A stretch of DNA of 45,523 nucleotides from a virus. Taxonomy: Duplodnaviria; Caudoviricetes. Shown here piece after piece: positions 10,131-45,179 of the stretch. The stretch covers positions 1-45,523 of IMG/VR virus record IMGVR_UViG_3300044708_000233; one strand, written 5' to 3'. The notes beneath the pieces are model-generated. The model made no database searches, had not been told where the DNA came from, and saw only the letters and a program-made list of their open reading frames with translations. Position 1 is the first letter of the stretch. Each line of letters begins with the position of its first letter. A program made the translations under genes and the position numbers.

Positions 10131-10661
10131 ATGCTCATTTACCCGACCCTCTTGCCCTGTGCATCTCGCATCGAAGGTCATTCGGCGAGCGCGTTCGCGG
10201 GCCTCGTGCGTACGCCCATGGAGTCGGGCAACATGCGCCAGCGGCGCGCGCAGCGGGTGCTGCCGCAGCAGGTCTCGCTGACCTTCGTCATCGACCAGAG
10301 CGCCTACAGTGACTGGCTTGCATGGGTCAACGAATATGCCTGGGACGAATGGATCCTGATGAACTTGCCCGGGCTGCGCGCGAGCACCAGCGGCACCGAT
10401 ACGGCGCCGACCGCCGTGCGGTTCATCTCCGAGCTGCAAAGCGAGCTCATCCCCATCGACCGCCGGTGGCTGTGGCGTGCCCGTGTCACGGCCGAATACG
10501 TGCCGGCCGCGGCCGATTTCCTCGCGACCCATGGCGTGTGGATTGTCCCGGGGCAGCCGGCCGTGCCCGAACCGGCCTGGGTCTTCGCGGGGTCGCCCGA
10601 GTCGCCTTCGCCGGTTTTCACCGACCCGGGCACGCCACAGCTGCCCACCGTTGGCGTTTGA
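10131..10661 (+). CDS. Distal-tail (Dit/gpM-like) protein, paralog 1
   Basis: YP..LP..LVRTPMESG..RQRR...V.L.F...W..W...W..M.LP motif; Pro/Gly repeat tail. Confidence 0.65.
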   Translation: MLIYPTLLPCASRIEGHSASAFAGLVRTPMESGNMRQRRAQRVLPQQVSLTFVIDQSAYSDWLAWVNEYAWDEWILMNLPGLRASTSGTDTAPTAVRFISELQSELIPIDRRWLWRARVTAEYVPAAADFLATHGVWIVPGQPAVPEPAWVFAGSPESPSPVFTDPGTPQLPTVGV

Positions 10662-12908: not shown

Positions 12909-13433
12909 ATGCTGGCCTACCCGTCCACCCTGCCGTGCGTGTCTCGCATCGAGGGCCATTCGGCGACCGCTTTCGCTGGGCTGGTGCGTACGCCGATGGA
13001 AGCCGGCAGCGCGCGCCAGCGTCGCACGCACCGCGTGCTGCCGCACCAGATGACGCTCGTCTTTGTCATGGCCCAGGAGGTCTATGGAGACTGGCTGGCC
13101 TGGGTGAACGACAACGCGTTTGACCAATGGATCGCGCTGAAGCTGCCGGGCTTTCTCGCCTCGCGGGCAGGCACCGATACCGCAGCCGTTCCGGTGCGAT
13201 TTGTCTCCGATCTCACGATGGAGCTGATCCCCGCGCACCGCCTCTGGTACTGGCGCGCCCGCGTCAATGCCGAATGGCTGCCCTCAAGCGACGACCTGGC
13301 GTCGCGACCGTTCGGCCCGTGGGTTGTGTCGGGCGGCTCACATACCGACTGGGTCATCGCCGGCACGCCGGCGCAGCCTTCGCCCGACACGGTGACCAGC
13401 GGCACGCCTATCACGCCGAGCGCGGCCTATTGA
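12909..13433 (+). CDS. Distal-tail (Dit/gpM-like) protein, paralog 2
   Basis: 81 of the first 125 aa identical to 10131..10661 by manual alignment. Confidence 0.65.
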   Translation: MLAYPSTLPCVSRIEGHSATAFAGLVRTPMEAGSARQRRTHRVLPHQMTLVFVMAQEVYGDWLAWVNDNAFDQWIALKLPGFLASRAGTDTAAVPVRFVSDLTMELIPAHRLWYWRARVNAEWLPSSDDLASRPFGPWVVSGGSHTDWVIAGTPAQPSPDTVTSGTPITPSAAY

Positions 13434-15623: not shown

Positions 15624-16657
15624 GCGCTCCACGCCTCCTCGAGCACGGCCATCTCGTCCGTCTTCTGCACCCAGCCCGTGCCGGTCTGGTTCTTGTAGTT
15701 GAGGCCGTAGTCGTCCTCGTTGTCGGTGTTTTGCTTCCACTGCCACCAGCAGTAGCCCGTGCCCGTATCCTCCATGGCCTGCAGCGCGCGACGCATGAGA
15801 TGGCGATCGGGGTCGTAGTTCGTCTTGCGCCCGAGCTGCTGCACGAACACGGGCACCCCGCGCGTGTCGCGCAAGTGCAGGAGCGCCGCGAGACCGTCAT
15901 CGAATCTCGATGGGTTCGAGACGTACGGATTCAACAGGTTGCCGGTATAGACGACGTCCGAGCGTTCCTCGAGGAACGCTTCCTCGCACAGCTCGATGGC
16001 GTAGCCGTCGCGCGCCCCGATGAGAAACGGCGTGTCCATGTCGATGTGCGGCTGCCGGATGGCCGCGATGCACTCGCGATAGAACTCGCGCACGGGCGCG
16101 GCATACTCGGGCCCGCGCTTGCCCGCGGGCTCGGGCAGGAGCTCGAGGAAGGCGATCTTCGCCACCGTGCGCAGGCGCGCGGAGGCCGCCGGCCAGACGA
16201 CCTGTGAGAAAACGCGCCGCATGGCTGGGTCGGTGAAGAAATTCCGCCCGCGCGCGCCCCATGATTGATAGGGGTCGCAATACGCCATCGTGCCGGCGTC
16301 CTGCGTGCCGCTCTGGCCGCAGTTGCTATCGATGAAGGGCACCACCCACATGCCCTCGGCAGCGACGGCGGCGATGAGGGCGAGCCATCGCTCGAAATGC
16401 GTGCGACGCAAGAACGCAAACGCGTCGTTGTCGCGCGAGTCGACCGTTGGGTCGCCGTGCTTGCCCCACCAGCGCAGGCACACGCGCACGATGTTCGCAC
16501 CCATGGCGGCGACCGGCGTCGCATCCACGGGATCGTCCTCGCCCCACGAGCCGAAGTTCAGGCCGCGCGGGACGAACTCCTGGCCGTTGGGCTTGAGCAG
16601 ACGCGCACCGTCCACGCGCAGGCGGGGCGGCAGGTCGGTATCGGTCTCGGTGGTCAT
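15620..16657 (-). CDS. Glycoside hydrolase family 5-like TIM-barrel protein, 345 aa
   Basis: LRVDG..L..PNG..F..RGLN, MGANIVRV, ELLPEP, PVFVQQLG, GYCWWQWK correspond to GH5 strands. Confidence 0.8.
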   Translation of the reverse strand: MTTETDTDLPPRLRVDGARLLKPNGQEFVPRGLNFGSWGEDDPVDATPVAAMGANIVRVCLRWWGKHGDPTVDSRDNDAFAFLRRTHFERWLALIAAVAAEGMWVVPFIDSNCGQSGTQDAGTMAYCDPYQSWGARGRNFFTDPAMRRVFSQVVWPAASARLRTVAKIAFLELLPEPAGKRGPEYAAPVREFYRECIAAIRQPHIDMDTPFLIGARDGYAIELCEEAFLEERSDVVYTGNLLNPYVSNPSRFDDGLAALLHLRDTRGVPVFVQQLGRKTNYDPDRHLMRRALQAMEDTGTGYCWWQWKQNTDNEDDYGLNYKNQTGTGWVQKTDEMAVLEEAWSA

Positions 16658-28936: not shown

Positions 28937-29163
28937 GGCGCCCGCCTACGGCGCGTGCGCGGCGGATGCGTGATGCTCGTGCTCTCGATGACCACGCCCG
29001 CGGCCAGCAGCCGCTCGACGTCGCTGGCCGTGGCCACGCGCGCCGTCACGGCGCCCTTCATGGCGCGTGATTTGTTCGGTGCGCGCATCAAACGTTCGCT
29101 TGCACCGTCGGATGTGCTCGTGCTCGCGAGCACATACAGGCGCGTGTCGCGAATGGTGGTCAT
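28933..29163 (-). CDS. Hypothetical protein, 76 aa
   Basis: AGGAGG RBS; RLMRA.N...ARVAT..DV..LL.AGV.IE pattern. Confidence 0.6.
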   Translation of the reverse strand: MTTIRDTRLYVLASTSTSDGASERLMRAPNKSRAMKGAVTARVATASDVERLLAAGVVIESTSITHPPRTRRRRAP

Positions 29164-30239
29164 GATTCACCTCCTTGCCATTTCTCGCTGTAGGCCGCGC
29201 TGAGCTGGGCGAGCTCGTCGGGCTCGAGCGCGCTGCGCGCCGCGTCCAGCACCAGCAGCGCCCCGTCGCTGTCTGTCGTGCCGGCCATGGCGACCAGGTA
29301 CTGCGCCAGCGACAGCGGCACCGGCGTGCCGTCGATTTCGCCCGCGTCGTTGGCGGGCGGCTCGACCGCGGTACGTGTGCGCGATGCGCGGCGCTTGCCG
29401 ATGACCTCCTTCGCCGAGGTCGGTGGCGCGCTGCTACCGGCCGCGTCGCTGCCTTCGCCCGGGGGCGTCAGCTCGAACCAATCGCCCGGCGTGCTGATGC
29501 CATCGCGCAAGCTCGCGAAGATGCGCTTCAGCTGCACAACCTGCGCCGGCTGAATGGCATCAAGTCGGCGCTGGATGCGTTTTTCGATGTGTGCCTTCGT
29601 GACGTCGTACGGCGCGAACGCCTCGAGCATCCTCGCCATGCCCTCCGGGCTCGTATCGGCGCGCGTGCGCAGCGTGGCGGTGGCTTGATCCATGGCCATT
29701 GCGATGACGTCGCCAGGGATCAGCGCGAGGATGCAGGCCCGCTTGCGGCGTTGCGCTTGTGATGCGCAAGTTTCAAAAATATCTCTTTCGTCCTTCAGCG
29801 GATAACCGCCCTTTTTCGTGTCGCGCCAGTGGCGCACATGGAATTTGATCGCCTCGCGGTTAACCGTCTCGTAGTCGACCGCGAAGGCCTCAATTTCCGA
29901 CACGCCCACGCCATCGGCACCGACAAAGCGTGAAAGTTCCGACCAACCCGTCGCCATGTTGCCCCAGGCCAAGCGAATCGCTTCGGCCGAACGGATGCTC
30001 GGCCCGGCGATGTCGGTGCCGCCACGCTGAAAGCTGTATTGAGATTCCTCTGCTAAGCCGGCGCGTTGGAAAGCATCCCGAATACGGTCACAGGCATGCA
30101 GCTCGTTGCGCGGATTCTGCCGCGCGCTGTAGATCATTGCGAGAACTTCAGTCGACTCGCGAGCCTGCTGCACGCGACCGGCAGCGGTATCGGCGAGCGC
30201 GCGCCGGGCTTCGAATGGATTCGTCGTGATGTCGTTCAT
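29160..30239 (-). CDS. Putative recombination/single-strand annealing protein, 359 aa
   Basis: PRNE..A.DRI, YSFQRGG.DI.GPSIR.AE...WGN, RRKRACIL.LIP family usually paired with phage exonucleases (function inferred). Confidence 0.55.
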   Translation of the reverse strand: MNDITTNPFEARRALADTAAGRVQQARESTEVLAMIYSARQNPRNELHACDRIRDAFQRAGLAEESQYSFQRGGTDIAGPSIRSAEAIRLAWGNMATGWSELSRFVGADGVGVSEIEAFAVDYETVNREAIKFHVRHWRDTKKGGYPLKDERDIFETCASQAQRRKRACILALIPGDVIAMAMDQATATLRTRADTSPEGMARMLEAFAPYDVTKAHIEKRIQRRLDAIQPAQVVQLKRIFASLRDGISTPGDWFELTPPGEGSDAAGSSAPPTSAKEVIGKRRASRTRTAVEPPANDAGEIDGTPVPLSLAQYLVAMAGTTDSDGALLVLDAARSALEPDELAQLSAAYSEKWQGGES

Positions 30240-30255
30240 TGATTAATTCCCCTTT

Positions 30256-31398
30256 CCTGCCTATCCGGTCCACGCCTTGAGCGCCCTCGCCAGACCTCGC
30301 CGACCCATACCCGTACCTGGCCCAGCCATGTCCTTGCCTGCCTTGCCCCGCCACGCCATAGCATTTCGTGGCCTTGCCTGTACGTGCCTGCCTGGCCCGG
30401 CCTGACCTTGGGCAGCCAGTCCTCGATCACGCCTGCCTTACCTCCCCGTATCCAGTCACGTCCCGTCTCGCCGCACCTAGCCGTGCCTGCCGTGGGCTAC
30501 CCTGGCCTTGTCGTGCGCAGCCAGTCCTCGCCTATCCACGCGTCGCACGGGCTCGCGTCGCCTGCCCCACCTCGCCTCACTAGGCCAAGCCCAGCCTCAC
30601 CAATGCCGTGCCTGCCTTGCCACATCCTTCCAATCCCGACCTATACGCTCGCGTCTCGCCTGCCTTGCCAATCCAGGCCACGATGCGCTCGCGCCTCGCC
30701 TGCCTCGCCAATCCAGGCCGTAACGAGCCGCGCGAATCCTCACTGCGCCGCGCCCTACCCGGCCCTGCCTGCCAAAGCCAAACCACGCTCCGCCGCGCCT
30801 CACCGCGCGCAACCATTCCACGCCGTACCTGCCACGCCATGCCTCGCCTCATCCGCTACCGCGCCTTACCTCGCCTTCATCCACCCCTCCGCGCCTGCCT
30901 CGCCACGCCATACCGTGCAATCGGAACCCGCCAGCCCAGACCCGTCCTCGTCACGTCATTTCACGCCTCTCTAGACCGAACCGCGCCGCGCCTGCCGCGC
31001 ACCGCCCCGCCGTGCCGTACCGGCCCAAACCCGTTCCCCGCCCCGCCTCGACGCCGCCATGCCCAACCTGCCTCGCCGGGCCTGTCACTGCCTGTCCCAA
31101 CATCGCCCCACCAACCCTAGCCTGCCTGTCCGCGCCTGCCTCTCCGTGCCTGTTCCAGCCCACACCAGCGCCCGGCCGTACCTCGCCGTGAGCGACCACT
31201 CCAACCGTCGCCTGCCTCGCCGGTCCGAGCCGTGCGTACCCCTCGTCACCCGACCAGCCCTCGCCTGCACCTCGCCTGCCTTCCGCGCCTGCCGTACCAA
31301 GCCTCGCCGTGCCGCGCCCAACCCCGCCACTCTGAGACGAGCCGAACCTCGTCGCGCCATGCCTGCCTCACCACTTCAGTCCGTGCCATTGCCTGTCC
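30256..31398 (-). repeat. ~1.15 kb non-coding array of GGY-NN pentamers with GGCAGG delimiters; putative guide-RNA array
   Basis: 5-nt periodicity (+ strand RCC-NN); 21 copies of CCTGCC spaced mostly 40-100 nt; fills the gap between two co-oriented genes. Confidence 0.85.
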
Positions 31399-31400
31399 AA

Positions 31401-31922
31401 TCAGGCTGCATTGCGGTCATCGAACCAAGTCCGAAGACCGACAATACGCTCAATCAACCCATCGATTTCCGAAGCCAGCCCGAGGGTCAATGCATAACCG
31501 CGCGCACGGTCGAGTGCTGAACGTGCGCGACTGAGTTCCGCATCCACATGGGCGCGTTTGAGGTCTTCATCGGTGCGCAGTTCGTCGACCGTCACATAGC
31601 CTTGTTGGTCGGCCGGCGCCTTTGGATTGCGCACGTAGTACGGCACCTTGTAGGTCGTCGTTGTCGTGATCGTCTTCACCCGATAGGTGCAGATGATTTC
31701 GCGCGCCTGCACGACCCAATGCTGATACGCCGCGCGCTGCAGATCCCAGTCGATCAGCGCATGCAACGGGCTTTTGGCGTCGCGCGCCGCTTCGACCACC
31801 GCTTCGGCGGTCAGTCCGTATTCGCCGCGTTCGATTTGGGCGAGCGCATCCTGGATGCGCTGCTTGGCATCGGCGTCGCCGGCCTTGCGCCGCGGAGGTT
31901 GAATCGGCGCGCGTTTCATCAT
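31401..31922 (-). CDS. Accessory protein of the RAMP-array locus, 173 aa
   Basis: LTAEAVVEAARDAKSPLH..IDWD...AA.QH...QAR.II motif; ATGA-coupled to the RAMP gene. Confidence 0.75.
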   Translation of the reverse strand: MMKRAPIQPPRRKAGDADAKQRIQDALAQIERGEYGLTAEAVVEAARDAKSPLHALIDWDLQRAAYQHWVVQAREIICTYRVKTITTTTTYKVPYYVRNPKAPADQQGYVTVDELRTDEDLKRAHVDAELSRARSALDRARGYALTLGLASEIDGLIERIVGLRTWFDDRNAA

Positions 31923-32803
31923 GCGCTCCCTTCAGCGGCCGCGCCATTGCCGCGGTAGCCGCCCTTGGTCGCACCTACAGGGGGCGGAATGCCATCATCG
32001 CCACTGATGTCGCGCGACTGGCGTACCGTCGCCTTGCGACCCCGCTTGCCGATGACCTCATCCTCAAACCAGTCGAGCGCCTCTTCGGCCTCCTCGTCGA
32101 ACGGCTCGGCGTCCTCCATGGCCTGGAGCTGTGCGGACCTTCCCCAGTGCGCTTTCACATCCAGATACTCGGGATCGTCCGCAGCGCATACCCGAAAGCC
32201 GCCGAATGACCCCGACCCCTTGCCCTGGCGCCATTCGCCCACACCCGAGGAAATGCCGGCCGTGTGCAACAGGTTGGCCAGCCCCTGCGGGCGAACGAGC
32301 AGCGGCGGGTAATGCAATGTCAGCTCGGTTGCCCACGCGGGCAGGATGCAGCGCGTACGGACGTCGGGCGTATGGTTGATGTCCGAATTGCGCGTGATGG
32401 CCATGTGCAAGAACGGATGACCCCAGACCGCGATGCGATCCCAGTCGACCCGCAGCAAACGAAGGATCTTGCTCTTCGCCATCCCCGGCGTGTCGAGCGC
32501 CGCGGTGCCCATCGCCTGCTTGAACATCGTCGGCAGCAGGGCCAGCAGTGTCGGCGCGTCATCGACGCGCAGTCGGTACGGAGAGCTGCGGAATTCGGCT
32601 ACCGGGTCATGTTTCAGGCTCGTCGCCTTGTCGGCCGCCGTCTTTCGGCCGCTGGGGCCGAGCAGCTGCTGCCACACCTTCGACGTCATGCGGTTGAGAA
32701 TCAACGGCGTCGTGCCGACGATGTGGAACGTGATCGATGCTTCCTCGATCTTGAGGAAGTCGACGATTTCTTCAGACTTCTTCGCGCTTGCCTTGGTTGT
32801 CAT
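31919..32803 (-). CDS. Solo Cas7-like RAMP-fold protein, 294 aa
   Basis: N-terminal strand ITFHIVGTTPLILN, LPTMFKQAM helix, C-terminal G-rich loop AGISSGVGEWRQGKGSGSFGGF. Confidence 0.75.
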   Translation of the reverse strand: MTTKASAKKSEEIVDFLKIEEASITFHIVGTTPLILNRMTSKVWQQLLGPSGRKTAADKATSLKHDPVAEFRSSPYRLRVDDAPTLLALLPTMFKQAMGTAALDTPGMAKSKILRLLRVDWDRIAVWGHPFLHMAITRNSDINHTPDVRTRCILPAWATELTLHYPPLLVRPQGLANLLHTAGISSGVGEWRQGKGSGSFGGFRVCAADDPEYLDVKAHWGRSAQLQAMEDAEPFDEEAEEALDWFEDEVIGKRGRKATVRQSRDISGDDGIPPPVGATKGGYRGNGAAAEGSA

Positions 32804-34292: not shown

Positions 34293-35165
34293 ATGCGCGC
34301 CCGCAGCCTCAAGCCCGGATTCTTCGAAAACGAGGAACTCGCCGAGTGCAGCGCCTGGGCGCGCCTGTGCTTTGCGGGCCTGTGGATGCTCGCCGATCGC
34401 GAAGGCCGGCTCGAGGACCGACCGCGGCGCATCAAGGGCGCCCTGTTCCGCTTCGACGCGCTGGAAATCGAGCCGCTGCTCGATGAGCTCGAAGTGCACG
34501 GCTTCATCCTGCGCTACGCCAATGAAGACGGCCGATTCATCGAAATCCTCGCCTTCAAGAAGCACCAGGCACCGCACTACTCCGAGAAACCGAGCACCAT
34601 CAAGCCGCCGATGGTCGCGAAAACAGACGCCATCATGCCGGCCCAACTCCCGGAGTCAGCCGGTCATGATGACGATGAATTCCGGAGAACTCCGGAGAAC
34701 TCCGGAGTCGACCCGCCATTAAGAGGGGGTCACAACCCCCTGACTCCTGACTCCGGACTCCTGACTCCTGACTCCGGGTCCTCCTCCTCCCTTCGGTCGG
34801 AGGTAGCGGTTTCGCGCTCGGCGCGAAGCCCGCCACCCACAACGGTCGAGCAAAAACGACCCCCGAAACCCCCGCCGCTGCCGCCCTTCGACGGCAGCAA
34901 TGCCGAGGCGCTCAACGGCCGCGCGGTCGTGCGCCTCGCCGAGGCCTGGGAGCTGCCCGAGCAGTGGGGCGTCGACGCCGAGGCGCTCGGCTGGCGACCG
35001 GCCGACGTGCTGCGACAAGCCGAGCTCTTCCGGCAGTACTGGACGCGGGGACGAGGACGCGACACCCGGCGCAGCGTCAAGGGCTGGTCGCAAAGCTGGT
35101 CGAACTGGCTCGCGAAGGCCAGCCGCAGCAGTGGCAGCAGCAGCAACGAAAGACCCCGGCCATGA
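34293..35165 (+). CDS. Replication initiator protein, 290 aa
   Basis: RARSLKPGFF.NE.L...RL.F.GLW..ADREGRLEDRP.RIK N-domain; DnaT-like C-domain (F..YW...W...W.NW). Confidence 0.85.
   Translation: MRARSLKPGFFENEELAECSAWARLCFAGLWMLADREGRLEDRPRRIKGALFRFDALEIEPLLDELEVHGFILRYANEDGRFIEILAFKKHQAPHYSEKPSTIKPPMVAKTDAIMPAQLPESAGHDDDEFRRTPENSGVDPPLRGGHNPLTPDSGLLTPDSGSSSSLRSEVAVSRSARSPPPTTVEQKRPPKPPPLPPFDGSNAEALNGRAVVRLAEAWELPEQWGVDAEALGWRPADVLRQAELFRQYWTRGRGRDTRRSVKGWSQSWSNWLAKASRSSGSSSNERPRP
34681..34775 (+). repeat. Iteron-like repeats in the initiator linker (probable replication origin)
   Basis: TCCGGAGAAC x2 plus TCCGGAG at 34681; (T/G)GACTCC x5 at 34741-34775. Confidence 0.65.
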
Positions 35166-40371: not shown

Positions 40372-42507
40372 ATGCCGGTCGTGAGCGGCCCGCGCACCAC
40401 CACCGCTGATTCGCCGCTCGCCGGCGATGTGGAGCACGTCGAACGACGTGGCGGTGCCCCCGTCCTGGCCTCCCCGGGCCAAGCAGTGGACAGCGATGCG
40501 ATTCGATTTCGCGTCAGCACCGAGGACCGCAACGATGACGGCGTCGTCGTCGTGCAATCGGGCCTGGAGTTTCCCGACGTTCTGCCGGCGGTGGCCGACC
40601 ATTCGCATGACTTGCAGTCGGCGATCGGCGATTGGCGCAACGTCGAGCGGGGACAGCGCGAAACCTTCGCCACCCTGCGGCTACTGCCGCGCGGGGTCTC
40701 GCGGGCCGCCGACCTCGTGCGCGCGCTGCACACGGGCGGCTATCCACTGGCCAGTTCGGTCTACTTCACCACCCGGCGCGGCGACGTCGAACCGATTTTC
40801 ACCACCGGCCGCGACGGTCGGCCTGTACGGACGGGCACGCGCTACCTGCGCGGGCAGGTCCATGAAATCAGCCTCACACAATTCCCGATGAACCCGGCGG
40901 CCGTGGCCGTCGCGCGTTCGCTGGGGTTCTCGGACGCCGAGCTGGCCGCGCTGTCGCGCCCCGAGCCTGCTCCCCGCGTCACCCCTTCCCGCACCACCGA
41001 GGCGGTCGCCCGTGCGGATGCCTCACGAGGCACCATCATGACCATCGCAGAAATGATCGCGGCCGCGCAACAGGCGCACGAGGCCGCCCAGGCTTCTCTC
41101 GGCACGGCCACCCAGGCGCTCGAGTCGGACCAGTCCGAGGCGAATCTGGCCACCGTCGCGCGCGCGACCACCGAAGTCGACGCGCTGTTCGCGAGGCTGT
41201 CCACGCTGCGCCAAGCCGAAACGGCCGCCGCGCGCCGTGCGGCCACCGCGCCCGCCCCCGCTCCTGCCCCGACCGTCGTATCGCGCACGGTCGCGCCCCT
41301 GACCACCGATTCCCGCGGCGCCCCGGGCATCCTCACGCGGCGCACGGATACCAAGGACCTGCCGCCCGGTACGCGCTTGGCGCAAGTCGTCATGGCCGCC
41401 TCGGTGGCACGTTCGCGCCGCCTGGGCCTGGACCAGGTTGCGACCGAACTCTTTGCCGACAACGCCGAGGTGCTCGCCATCGCGCGCGCGGCCGTGGGCG
41501 TGGCAGACGCGACAACCGCCGGTTGGGCGAGCGAACTCGTGCGTTACGAAACGCGCGCGATGCTGGACCAGACGATCAACCCCACCGCCATGTGGCCCCG
41601 GCTGGCCGCGCAGGGCATCTCGCTGAACTTCAACGGGGCGCAATCGGTCGTCGTGCCGGGGCTGAGTGTCGGCACCGCCACGGGCGGCGCCTGGGTCGGC
41701 GAGGGCGGCGTCATTCCGCTCGTGAAAGGCGCTTTCACCGCAAAGCGGCTGAGCCGCTACAAACTCGCCGGCATCATCCCGATCACCAAGGAGCTCCAGC
41801 GCGTGAGCGACCCCTCGGCGGTCGATGCGATGACCAAGCTGCTGCAGCAGTTCATCTCGAACTTGCTGGACTCGTGCCTCATCGATGCCCTGCCCGAGGT
41901 GCCAGGCGTGCGGCCCGCGGGGCTGTTGAATGGCGTGACGCCCATCACGGGTGCGGCGGGCGGTGGCTATGAGGCCTTCCGGGCCGACCTCGAGGCCATC
42001 ACGACGGCCTTCACGGCCGCGGGTGTGGGGACGAATCCAGTGCTGCTGGTCAATACCGCGAAAGCCTTCCGGCTTGCGACGATGGTGAACGCACTCGGAC
42101 AGCTCGTTTTCTCCGATCCGAGCAAGCCGCTGAACTTCCCAATCATCCCCAGCCAATTCGTGCCACCGACGGCGGCCATCGCCGTGGCCGCCGAGAAATT
42201 CGTCTCCGCGCTCGACACGCCGGAAATCGACACGAGCGAGGAAGCCACCTTGACGATGGCCGATGCCGGCCCCGTGGCACCCACGCAGGCCGGCGACGCG
42301 GTCGGGGGTGGCGCGCTGGGCACGCCCGGTCAGGTCATCCCGGACGGGGGCATTCCCGTCGCGGGCTCGGCCGGGGCATCCACCGTGGGGGCCATCGCCA
42401 TCTCGCTGTGGCAGACCTGGTCGCTCGGCGTGCGCATGGTCTTCCCGGCGTCGTACGGACTGACCCGGCCCGGTTCCGTGCAGGAAGTGACGGGGATCAC
42501 ATGGTGA
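40372..42507 (+). CDS. Prohead protease-major capsid fusion protein (HK97 fold), 711 aa
   Basis: Protease motifs DH...IG.W, SSVYF, EISL..FPMNPAA, followed by capsid motifs AWVGEG..IP, KLAGIIPITKEL, RPAGLLNG. Confidence 0.9.
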   Translation: MPVVSGPRTTTADSPLAGDVEHVERRGGAPVLASPGQAVDSDAIRFRVSTEDRNDDGVVVVQSGLEFPDVLPAVADHSHDLQSAIGDWRNVERGQRETFATLRLLPRGVSRAADLVRALHTGGYPLASSVYFTTRRGDVEPIFTTGRDGRPVRTGTRYLRGQVHEISLTQFPMNPAAVAVARSLGFSDAELAALSRPEPAPRVTPSRTTEAVARADASRGTIMTIAEMIAAAQQAHEAAQASLGTATQALESDQSEANLATVARATTEVDALFARLSTLRQAETAAARRAATAPAPAPAPTVVSRTVAPLTTDSRGAPGILTRRTDTKDLPPGTRLAQVVMAASVARSRRLGLDQVATELFADNAEVLAIARAAVGVADATTAGWASELVRYETRAMLDQTINPTAMWPRLAAQGISLNFNGAQSVVVPGLSVGTATGGAWVGEGGVIPLVKGAFTAKRLSRYKLAGIIPITKELQRVSDPSAVDAMTKLLQQFISNLLDSCLIDALPEVPGVRPAGLLNGVTPITGAAGGGYEAFRADLEAITTAFTAAGVGTNPVLLVNTAKAFRLATMVNALGQLVFSDPSKPLNFPIIPSQFVPPTAAIAVAAEKFVSALDTPEIDTSEEATLTMADAGPVAPTQAGDAVGGGALGTPGQVIPDGGIPVAGSAGASTVGAIAISLWQTWSLGVRMVFPASYGLTRPGSVQEVTGITW

Positions 42508-42656
42508 CCACCATTACCGTGTTGGTGCTGCTCGTGGTCGCGCTCGTGCTGTTTGTGCTCGCGGCGGCGGGCATCGTCCATGCACGGCTGCAGCTCGTCC
42601 CGCTCGGTCTGGCCGCGGCCACGCTGGCCGAGCTCGTGCGATGGTGGCCGCCGTGA
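42501..42656 (+). CDS. Small two-TM membrane protein (holin-like candidate), ~51 aa
   Basis: Very hydrophobic; overlaps the capsid stop. Confidence 0.55.
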   Translation: MVTTITVLVLLVVALVLFVLAAAGIVHARLQLVPLGLAAATLAELVRWWPP

Positions 42657-42746
42657 TTTCGTTTTTGCAAAGTGTGAACGCGCTCCCCTGAAGGTCTGCT
42701 CGCGACGGGGGTTGCCTGAAGAAGCAGTTGCCGCTTGAGCAGTTCA

Positions 42747-42774
42747 GCCCCGGCCATCCGGTCGGGGTCTCTTT
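42747..42774 (+). terminator. Probable intrinsic terminator/attenuator after the capsid gene
   Basis: GCCCCGGCC-ATCC-GGTCGGGGT stem followed by CTCTTT. Confidence 0.5.
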
Positions 42775-42801
42775 CCTCCTACCGGCCAAGAGGCGCACAC
42801 G

Positions 42802-43392
42802 ATGGGACAGCCGATCTACATCACCGACCCCGCCGTTGCGGTCGCCTACCACGCCGACATCGGCACGTGGATCACCGTCGCCGACGAGGCGGAAACGCAG
42901 TGGTTGCTCGACAATCATCACGGCTATCACCTCGACGTCCAGCGCGGGCTGCCCGCGGCCGGTTTCGTCGACCCGCGGGCGCCCCTGCCCTTCGTGCCCT
43001 ACAGCCCGACGCCGCCCGGGCCTGAGCCGGCCAGGATGACCGCGACCATCGCCGACGCGGGCGCCGGCGTCTTCACCGTCACCTTCGGCGGCCTGCTCGA
43101 CACGCTCGACGCAAGCGGCCATTTCACCGTGGTCGATGCGGCGGCTGCGACGCTGGCCGATGTCACCTACCCGCAATCGGCCGGCACCACCTTCACGGGC
43201 GCGGCCGGCCTGCTGAAAACCGCGCTCACGCCACACGCCCCGCCGCTGGCGCTCGTTCAGACAGGCGCCGTGCTCGAGATTCGCGGCGTCGACCCCGTCA
43301 TCGTGAACGCGGTCACGGGCGCGCTCACACTCACGGGCCCGGCACGTCGCAAGCGCCTGGGCATCCGCGCGGAGGCACGCCGTGCCGCATGA
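42802..43392 (+). CDS. Hypothetical virion protein, 196 aa
   Basis: GAGG RBS; Thr/Ala/Gly-rich beta-type sequence in the head module. Confidence 0.6.
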   Translation: MGQPIYITDPAVAVAYHADIGTWITVADEAETQWLLDNHHGYHLDVQRGLPAAGFVDPRAPLPFVPYSPTPPGPEPARMTATIADAGAGVFTVTFGGLLDTLDASGHFTVVDAAAATLADVTYPQSAGTTFTGAAGLLKTALTPHAPPLALVQTGAVLEIRGVDPVIVNAVTGALTLTGPARRKRLGIRAEARRAA

Positions 43393-43669
43393 CATCGGGG
43401 TCGTCCTCGTCTGCGCCTTCGACCCGGTGGCCGAGCTCGGCAACGCGAAGGGCCTGCTGGCCCTGTCCACCGAACTGGCCGCGCGGCTCATCGCCGAGCG
43501 CCGCGTCGAGGCCACGGCCGACCACGCCAGCGAACCGCTGCGCTACGTGAGCGGCTCGCGCGCGTACGCGGCCGCGCGCCAGGCGCTGCGCGATGCGCGC
43601 GCCAGCGCGATGCCATCGCACCGCGGCCCCGGGCGGCCGCGCAAGGTCCCCCGCCTTGAGGAGGGCTGA
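43382..43669 (+). CDS. Hypothetical protein with basic GPGRPRK tail, 95 aa
   Basis: GGAGG RBS; position in the head module. Confidence 0.55.
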   Translation: MPHDIGVVLVCAFDPVAELGNAKGLLALSTELAARLIAERRVEATADHASEPLRYVSGSRAYAAARQALRDARASAMPSHRGPGRPRKVPRLEEG

Positions 43670-43676
43670 CCTCACC

Positions 43677-45179
43677 ATGGGCGCCCTCGCCGTTGCGCGC
43701 AGCTGGTTTGGTGGCCTCGGGTTTGGCGTGCTGGGCAATGTGCAGCCCGCCATGGGCCCCTTGTTCACCGCGCTCGGATTTGATCGCACGCTCGGCGGCA
43801 GCGCACACGCGCTCGACCCGCTGGATGGCACCGGCTGGCAGCGCAATCTCGCCAAGCTGGGCTGCGGCGCGCTGCCGGTCATCGAGGCCATCTACACGCT
43901 CTACACCAACGCCTTCGCGCAGCTGCGCCCGCATCACCGCCGGGTCGACCTCGTCACCGGCGCCGTCGAGGAAGTGACCTCGTCGCCCGCGGCCATCTTG
44001 CTGGTGCAGCCGAACCTGTACGAGAGCGGCGCGACGCTTTTCGGGCGCCTCGTGTGCGACTGGCTCGCCGGCGAGGCGCTCCTCGTCGCGCAGGTCAACG
44101 GGCGCACCGATCCCGCGGCGCTGCATCTTGTTTCCCGTGGAACATGGTCACCGCGCATCGATCCCGAGAGCCGCGAGGTCTTCTACTTCGTCAGCAACGA
44201 CCCGGCGTTGCTGTTCGGCCCACAGGCGCAGATCGCCGACGTCGACGAATCGCGTCTGATGGTGTTTCCGGCGCGCAATGTGATGCACTTGCGCTGGCGC
44301 ACGCCGCGGCATCCCTTGATCGGCGAGAGTCCCTTCGCGGCCGCGGCGCTGGCTGCCGGCATCAATGTCGCACTGAACCGCACGCAGATGCTGTTCGTCG
44401 AGAACATGCGCAGGGTGAGCACGGTCCTCTCGACCGACCTCATCCTCGACCGTAAGCAAATGGCCGATTTGCGCGAGGCCTATGACCAGCAGGCCGCCAA
44501 GTGGGCCACCGGCGGGCTTCCCATCCTGGCCGGCGGCCTGAAGATGTCGAGCGCGAACCTGGCCGCGATCGATGAAAGCATCATCACCTCGCTGCGCTTC
44601 TCGAATGAGGAAATCGCGCGCACCGCCGGCGTGCCGCCCCCGATGTACGGCGACTTGAGCGCCGGCGGATCCCTCACCTCGAGCGAAACGCTCGTGTTGC
44701 ACTGGCTCTCGGTGTCGCTCGGCGGCCTGATCGAACGGTTTGAACGCGAGCTCGATCGCCTCTTCCGCATGGATGGGCGCCACGACTACGTGGAGATGTC
44801 CACCGAGGCGTTGCTGCGCTCGGATCTCGCAGCGCAGGCACAGGCCATGTCGCAACTCGTGCAGGGCGGCTGCATGACGCCGGACGAAACGCGCAACCGG
44901 CTCGGCCTTGGGCCGGCACCGGGCGGCGACCAGCTCTTCCTTCAGAAGCAGATGGTGCCCGTCACGCTGGCGGCCGAGCTCGCGCAGGCCGAGCTCGACA
45001 AGCTCGCCGCGCCACCTCCGCCCCCGCCCGAGTTGTTGCCCGATGTGCCGCCCGATGTGCCGCCGGACGACATCGCGCCGCCCCCCGCTCCCACGGCCGA
45101 AGACGTGGCGGCCGCGCGCGCGCTTGATGCGAGCACGTTCCGGCACGCGCTGCGGGCGCTGCAGAAGGAGGTCGTCTAG
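43677..45179 (+). CDS. Portal protein (HK97-type), 500 aa
   Basis: QPN.YES, VMHLR...HPLIGESP, EEIAR..GVPP.M.G, LLRSD...GCMTPDE.R; Pro-rich tail; GAGGAGG RBS. Confidence 0.92.
   Translation: MGALAVARSWFGGLGFGVLGNVQPAMGPLFTALGFDRTLGGSAHALDPLDGTGWQRNLAKLGCGALPVIEAIYTLYTNAFAQLRPHHRRVDLVTGAVEEVTSSPAAILLVQPNLYESGATLFGRLVCDWLAGEALLVAQVNGRTDPAALHLVSRGTWSPRIDPESREVFYFVSNDPALLFGPQAQIADVDESRLMVFPARNVMHLRWRTPRHPLIGESPFAAAALAAGINVALNRTQMLFVENMRRVSTVLSTDLILDRKQMADLREAYDQQAAKWATGGLPILAGGLKMSSANLAAIDESIITSLRFSNEEIARTAGVPPPMYGDLSAGGSLTSSETLVLHWLSVSLGGLIERFERELDRLFRMDGRHDYVEMSTEALLRSDLAAQAQAMSQLVQGGCMTPDETRNRLGLGPAPGGDQLFLQKQMVPVTLAAELAQAELDKLAAPPPPPPELLPDVPPDVPPDDIAPPPAPTAEDVAAARALDASTFRHALRALQKEVV

Follow-up and report, generated by a model that had tools for sequence, protein, structure and literature searches.

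The systems named VIPR, for Viral Interference Programmable Repeat, were introduced in 2026 preprints (10.64898/2026.04.26.720920). As defined in the accessible parts of four reports (10.64898/2026.04.26.720920; 10.64898/2026.04.26.720927; 10.64898/2026.10.15.759431; 10.64898/2026.10.21.760802), they combine a Vipr protein and a vap gene with 9-16 repeats of the form GGY/NN, one protomer binding each repeat; a 1-nt skip, which usually falls on the wobble base of the target, separates the dinucleotides as they are read, and competing phages are silenced. One variant, the 'staggered arrays', has vrRNAs at positions that overlap by 1 nt, and is not counted among the forms confirmed by sRNA-seq (10.64898/2026.04.26.720920). 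The locus analysed here has in common with this variant (Fig. S18 legend, as accessible) its occurrence in a phage, a vipr gene, a probable vap gene and GGY/NN repeats with 1-nt unit overlaps; the main text gives no junction sequence, targets or RNA data for the variant. Within the accessible text of the supplement to 10.64898/2026.04.26.720920, of 10.64898/2026.10.15.759431 and of 10.64898/2026.10.21.760802 (figures and Data S1-S4 being outside this scope), the string GGCAG was not found, and literature searches found no further VIPR papers.

The DNA analysed here, referred to as the window, corresponds to an entire virus record (45,523 bases). It contains what is very probably a VIPR locus, in which vipr and a probable vap gene are accompanied by a staggered array whose units are likely to become guide RNAs that would silence core genes of kin phages. 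Both the system and the staggered layout have already been published, and the initial annotation of this DNA, which made no mention of the neighbouring vipr and vap genes, had, in effect, rediscovered VIPR; what the locus adds, for the least studied form of array, is a junction motif, a rule for unit size, and guide-target pairs with own-gene controls.

Also close are the Type II VIPR systems of SUSP1 and a P. fulva prophage (accessible text of 10.64898/2026.04.26.720927 and 10.64898/2026.10.15.759431), with which the window locus shares a homologous Vipr, a 1-nt skip at the wobble base and, apparently, inter-phage targets. According to the same text, the four separate RNAs of SUSP1, of ~100 nt, carry a structured 3' tail and are directed at a satellite, whereas the window units are tail-less and abut one another, and the targets found for them are homologous core genes of kin phages. 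Moreover, the window Vipr is longer (294 aa, as against 195 aa in SUSP1) and its accessory gene belongs to another PHROG family. Class 1 CRISPR-Cas systems, in which a Cas7/Csm3 backbone assembles on crRNA, have in common with the locus the RAMP fold and a guide array split at repeated boundaries; unlike them, the window has no repeat-spacer array and no cas genes among the ORFs scanned, and its pairing is gapped rather than contiguous.

The vipr gene and its neighbour

31919..32803, minus strand: vipr gene (P0001, 294 aa), predicted to encode a RAMP-fold guide-binding protein (PHROG 4652, fold model)
31401..31922, minus strand: candidate accessory gene, vap (P0002; product of 173 aa, largely helical; PHROG 15946, position)

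The P0001 protein matches PHROG 4652 (E 1.5e-8), the family to which the Vipr of SUSP1, whose accession is named in 10.64898/2026.10.15.759431, also belongs (E 1.4e-96), and a profile built from 120 sequences has a match in the G-loop of SUSP1 (E 1e-6). In an alignment of low identity (43/169), which retains the main RNA-binding residues, K33, R138, W178 and R179 of SUSP1 are aligned with K54, R151, W191 and R192 of P0001, respectively, and D177 with E190; in this same low-identity alignment, K82 and R39 of SUSP1 have no basic residue opposite them. The structure model of P0001 (pLDDT 84) finds its best folds in Csm3, Cmr and Cas7: the top Foldseek match is Csm3 (E 8.6e-5), and the VIA matches are Cmr/Csm subunits (Z 8.6, rmsd 3.4, 152 aligned). 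Neither a Pfam family nor a PDB sequence match was found for P0001. Taking the sequence comparisons and the predicted fold together, we conclude that P0001 is Vipr, a RAMP homolog encoded outside a CRISPR locus, with a predicted RRM core, thumb and G-loop. No nuclease was identified in the VIPR locus. Hypothetical proteins of cultured Mycobacterium and Gordonia phages (H1-H30) are distantly related to P0001, at 26-30% identity, and one kin phage carries a distant Vipr of another clade (G310:C1:9896-10468; E 2e-12).

The neighbouring gene, P0002, overlaps the vipr stop codon by 4 nt, and the closest relative of the locus, L001, has a 67% identical homolog at the same place. It gave no alignment with SUSP1 vap1, the sole vap compared; Foldseek returned no match to its fold at E 0.001, VIA returned generic helical matches only, and in the Atlas it falls into unnamed viral clusters. 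From its position, P0002 is the probable vap gene.

The pentamer array

30256..31398, minus strand: staggered vrRNA array of ~230 GGY/NN pentamers, with 21 GGCA/GG junctions (the stroke marks the slip) and 17 units of 40-97 nt

Most of what the initial annotation had described in this region was borne out. All 21 CCTGCC sites lie exactly where it had listed them; they represent 21 of the 47 copies in the window, concentrated within the 1.15 kb of the array, where the other strand has none. The proposed period of five is evident from a base autocorrelation of 0.465 at lag 5 (z 11.1 against 500 mononucleotide shuffles), with peaks at lags 5, 10, 15 and on, and, among the 600-nt intervals scanned, the period-5 cut is exceeded over 30001-31500 and nowhere else. 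The run of 14 pentamers said to be in exact register does read as stated on the minus strand at 31363-31290, and the estimate of about 17 units agrees with the 17 units of 40-97 nt into which the junctions split the minus-strand array, the 21 segments being made up of these, a 24-nt leading piece and three mini-pieces (4, 13 and 14 nt). The contrast drawn between a constant triplet and a variable dinucleotide is also seen, as the five pentamer positions carry 1.23, 1.30, 0.42, 0.12 and 0.03 bits on the minus strand. Each unit contains 7-19 pentamers; in the parse of the window, the 207 steps between junctions comprise 187 of 5 nt, 14 of 6 nt, five of 4 nt and one of 7 nt, and the scaffold triplet is GGY in 125/207 and GGN in 158/207.

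The further claim, that a period of five is incompatible with codons, stands only in part: no codons are read from the array itself, yet its NN content has the shape of codons and matches codon positions 1-2 of the targets. NN composition is best fitted by sense codon positions 1-2 (r 0.69 for the window and 0.66 for relatives), although this fit is confounded by avoidance of AG and CC, and for interior NN antisense positions 2-3 are close to sense positions 1-2 (0.77 against 0.72). The order of the NN, assessed by a dicodon test, gave best z values of 3.25 and 2.6 among 72 tests.

There is no Rfam match in the window, and no folding beyond that of shuffles in 12 units and the 3' flank (z -1.3 to +1.6). 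Hammerhead ribozymes are lacking between units, there being no Rfam match and zero sequence between them; the invariant structured 3' tail that follows each repeat tract in Type II VIPR is absent, the units abutting directly. Neither a sigma-70 promoter nor a fitting terminator was found. With 232 pentamers, the array is the second longest of 148 that were parsed (median 75.5), and it may be partly decayed, because 12 of the 89 six-nt steps recorded in the clade-wide parse of these 148 arrays fall within it. Neighbouring units at 30613-30765 and 30389-30562 share partly duplicated sequence, which suggests that the array has grown by internal duplication or recombination.

Junctions and guide boundaries

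Of 160 loci that encode a relative of P0001, 139 have a period-5 GG tract, which invariably lies on the same strand as vipr; some of these loci are redundant, and some of the negatives end too early. To characterize the junctions, 148 de-duplicated arrays from 206 loci were parsed in such a way that 4- and 6-nt steps were penalized equally; 4-nt steps outnumber 6-nt steps by 1161 to 89, and GGCA/GG or GGCA/GT accounts for 718 of the 1161. The spacing between slips peaks at 9-12 pentamers (579/1013 gaps), similar to the size of known vrRNAs, which have 9-16 repeats, and 72% of the gaps measure 7-14 pentamers, as against 30% for random slips. Across the 133 loci with a dominant junction type, this is GGCA in 100, GGCG in 17, GGCT in 13 and GGCC in three. 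The GGCA/GG junction fits the 1-nt overlaps of the published 'staggered' layout, since GGCAG and GGYNN share one G.

The initial annotation had interpreted the delimiters as processing or boundary sites, and the seven guide-target pairs available, three of them from the window, agree with the latter. Matching to the target is at chance for the four NN upstream of the junction (16/56), whereas the first four NN past it match in 50/56; the latter figure is partly circular, as matches were selected by those NN, and the former is not. The junctions therefore act as guide boundaries. At the other end, the final one to three NN of the unit are mismatched in four of the seven pairs, and the match of a guide from the relative L229 ends after ten NN. 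Junction dialects occur in L231, L240, L251, L252 and L254, with GGCA/CG, GGCG/GT or GGCG/GG, or a GGA-scaffold array; the GGA-scaffold array was found in a Sphingomonas genome.

Apparent targets of the window units

Kin phages were collected through capsid, tail and PHROG 3657 homology (612 kb, both strands), and the 16 of the 17 units with at least 8 NN were scanned against them. The gapped search that the initial annotation had proposed, with 0-3 nt gaps and shuffled controls, is successful for three units when the gap is 1 nt, all in kin-phage genes; 3/16 units thus match kin genes, 3/16 give weaker leads, and 10/16 have no target above chance. All three matches are on the sense strand and use codon positions 1-2, the third codon base being skipped. 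Units were additionally compared with proteins through the first two bases of each codon; this is a best-case score, and the protein sets (47 capsid proteins and 150 PHROG 3657 proteins) were picked after DNA hints. The protein sequences added in this way fit better at the positions that the DNA hint had missed.

31137..31212, minus strand: unit 31212, matching kin major capsid genes (peptide ELVRTETRA); DNA 20/22, protein 21/22
31290..31363, minus strand: unit 31363, matching kin major capsid at a site just upstream of that of unit 31212; protein 21/26
40372..42507, plus strand: own major capsid gene, with near-self sites at 41500-41565
30488..30562, minus strand: unit 30562, with matches in kin homologs of the gene just downstream, of PHROG 3657 (peptide DERDVYELCANQ); protein 23/24
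29160..30239, minus strand: downstream gene, PHROG 3657; kin homologs are the apparent targets, own site at 29757-29792 mismatched

Unit 31212 matches the capsid genes of L314 and L324 at 20/22 and the phage's own gene at 18/22; skips of 0, 2 and 3 reach 17, and the DNA score was attained by 0/40 and 4/150 shuffles. At the protein level it scores 21/22 (0/5000 shuffles; 47 capsid proteins). The capsid site of unit 31363 is adjacent to, and overlaps, that of unit 31212; this unit scores 21/26 at the protein level (11/5000 shuffles; 47 capsid proteins), and its DNA match to the own capsid gene, 19/26, equals that to the kin DNA compared. Unit 30562 matches the PHROG 3657 gene of L324 at 20/24 and the own gene at 16/24. 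Its DNA match was reached by 1/40 shuffles for an 11-NN window and by 84/150 for a 10-NN window, the latter not significant, and its protein-level score is 23/24 (0/5000 shuffles; 150 PHROG 3657 proteins). At the DNA level, therefore, kin are matched better than self by two units (20/22 vs 18/22; 20/24 vs 16/24) and equally by one. Antisense readings of units 31212, 30562 and 31363 reach only 15, 15 and 18, respectively, and codon positions 2-3 are at chance. Guides of relatives match the same kinds of genes as the window units; those of L001 match the same PHROG 3657 site at 22/22 and capsid at 20/22. The phage likely silences competing relatives, since the core genes of such phages contain matches to three units in a code in which two bases are read and one is skipped. 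In the two target phages no vipr was found, their records being 73% and 83% complete.

30258..30338, minus strand: unit 30338, possible target in a distant PHROG 3657 homolog (19/22 in L315)
30613..30660, minus strand: unit 30660, possible kin vipr target (15/18, DAPYRL stretch of P0005)

The match of unit 30338 to L315 (19/22) was reached by 0/40 and 5/150 shuffles. In a variant reading, this unit has an exact ungapped 18/18 match in L323 (G311; minus strand 7227), in a region homologous to window 15950-16640; the 18-mer overlies an in-frame ATG of an ORF and does not extend, and we treat it as a chance match, for which we have no explanation. Unit 30660 matches P0005 at 15/18 (5/200 shuffles), where the own vipr reads SSPYRL and gives 11 matches; this is suggestive only, and the unit is possibly aimed at the vipr of close kin phages. 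Unit 31122 has one isolated match, 17/20 (0/200 shuffles).

None of the window guides matches DNA perfectly. Compared with 1.9 Mb of sequence on either side of vipr genes, 379 guides of relatives did not rise above shuffles at any skip length; three gapped scans of viral contigs for exact matches of 8 NN returned 4, 25 and 23 stretches, in all of which the remaining NN were at chance; and window and L001 guides showed no excess of matches to their own genomes or to each other, the near-self sites lying below the noise of this test.

Guides of Bradyrhizobium prophages

Bradyrhizobium prophages carry further staggered VIPR arrays, located upstream of a tail-fibre gene (L229:11421-11597, L243:11375-11492 and L233:10739-10930). 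A guide from L229 has three matches, vs one control match, in 301 genomes of the genus of its host; in the best of these, the first ten NN match at 20/20 on the sense strand of a prophage tail gene, with the wobble base skipped. Among 30 tail-gene copies selected by likeness to this match, the L229 guide scores 18-20/20 in 15, and a guide from L243, another prophage, scores 16-17/18 in eight, where skips of 0 and 2 reach 13 and shuffles 14. Both prophages have their own, more mismatched, copy of the tail gene downstream of the array: the L229 guide scores 16/20 and the L243 guide at most 13/18 against these, as against 20/20 and 17/18 in kin. These matches pointed to kin phages as targets. In the 30 tail loci, three of six Bradyrhizobium units scored no better than shuffles. 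Another unit of L229 appears to spell out the N-terminus of the tail protein with one pentamer missing (16/22, not above shuffles), and an L233 guide has a near-self match of 18/20 in its own prophage (L233:5590), a score reached by 1/20 shuffles in the tail-locus set.

Proposed mechanism and alternative interpretations

The array would be co-transcribed with vipr and vap. By analogy with SUSP1, one Vipr per pentamer would grip GGY and present NN, the NN pairs would read double-stranded DNA at two bases in three, and a Vipr complex seated on a kin gene at codon positions 1-2 would block its transcription. The 4-nt slip at GGCA/GG would break the 5-nt register, ending one filament where the next begins, and the exposed junction is the probable site of transcript cleavage, whether by Vipr itself or by an RNase of the host. 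The phage is probably spared because the guides are mismatched to its own gene copies.

The cutting step is where an alternative reading departs most from this scheme. In that reading, which we consider rather unlikely, VIPR operates with one long unprocessed RNA, the junctions merely resetting the register between separate filaments on a single transcript. The lack of a structured tail, hammerhead or Rfam family, and of any nuclease identified in the locus, is in keeping with it, as is the fact that the staggered form is not among the sRNA-seq-confirmed forms in the text of 10.64898/2026.04.26.720920. It is countered by the sequence preference of the junctions, GGCA dominating in 100/133 loci, since a mere frameshift needs no set sequence, and by the mention of individual processed vrRNAs in the Fig. 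S18 legend, as accessible, of the same preprint. It is improbable that the guides instead regulate the capsid and early genes of the phage itself (near-self silencing) rather than those of competitors: the own genes do match at 18/22, 19/26 and 16/24, and the L233 guide matches its own prophage at 18/20, but for two of the three units kin match better exactly where the own gene differs, and the own tail genes of L229 (16/20) and L243 (<=13/18) fall short of those of kin (20/20 and 17/18). Least credible, to the point of being very improbable, is a decayed or structural G-rich repeat (G-quadruplex or satellite), or coding sequence of low complexity, that does not serve as guides. The strand is G-rich, with 35 G-runs and one canonical quadruplex motif, the plus strand is stop-free over 243 codons, and there are extra 6-nt steps; set against this, an intact vipr is linked to the array in 139/160 loci, the unit size is regular, and the matches to kin genes are codon-phased.

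Returning to the guide-RNA interpretation, we tentatively propose, as a possibility short of an even chance, that staggered arrays are a tail-less, self-punctuating memory of kin: the slip would both end the filament and serve as the cut site; units would be copied from codon bases 1-2 of kin genes and tuned to the differences between kin and self; and the overlapping capsid guides and convergent guides would be traces of the acquisition mechanism. The junction motif, the unit-size rule and the guide-target pairs make two questions testable, namely, in what way vrRNAs that lack a tail are cut and loaded, and how near-identical relatives can be targeted by a phage that does not silence itself. 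Seventeen guides in one tail-less array would, moreover, offer a compact format for multiplexed gene silencing.

The phage and its setting

The window has a 142-nt terminal repeat with one mismatch. Because it encodes an integrase, a terminase, a portal, a major capsid protein, tail proteins, a replication initiator and exonuclease VIII, it is likely to represent a temperate phage in full. Its protein matches lean toward proteobacterial phages. The one run listed as containing the record is a soil metagenome, which may be its source; no array variants were found in this run. The major capsid gene lies between those for the terminase and the portal, an unusual order (40372-45179), and two paralogous virion proteins of PHROG 384 are encoded at 10131-10661 and 12909-13433. 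Finally, the replication initiator gene holds short tandem repeats with 10- and 7-nt units (34677-34775), which are possibly origin iterons.
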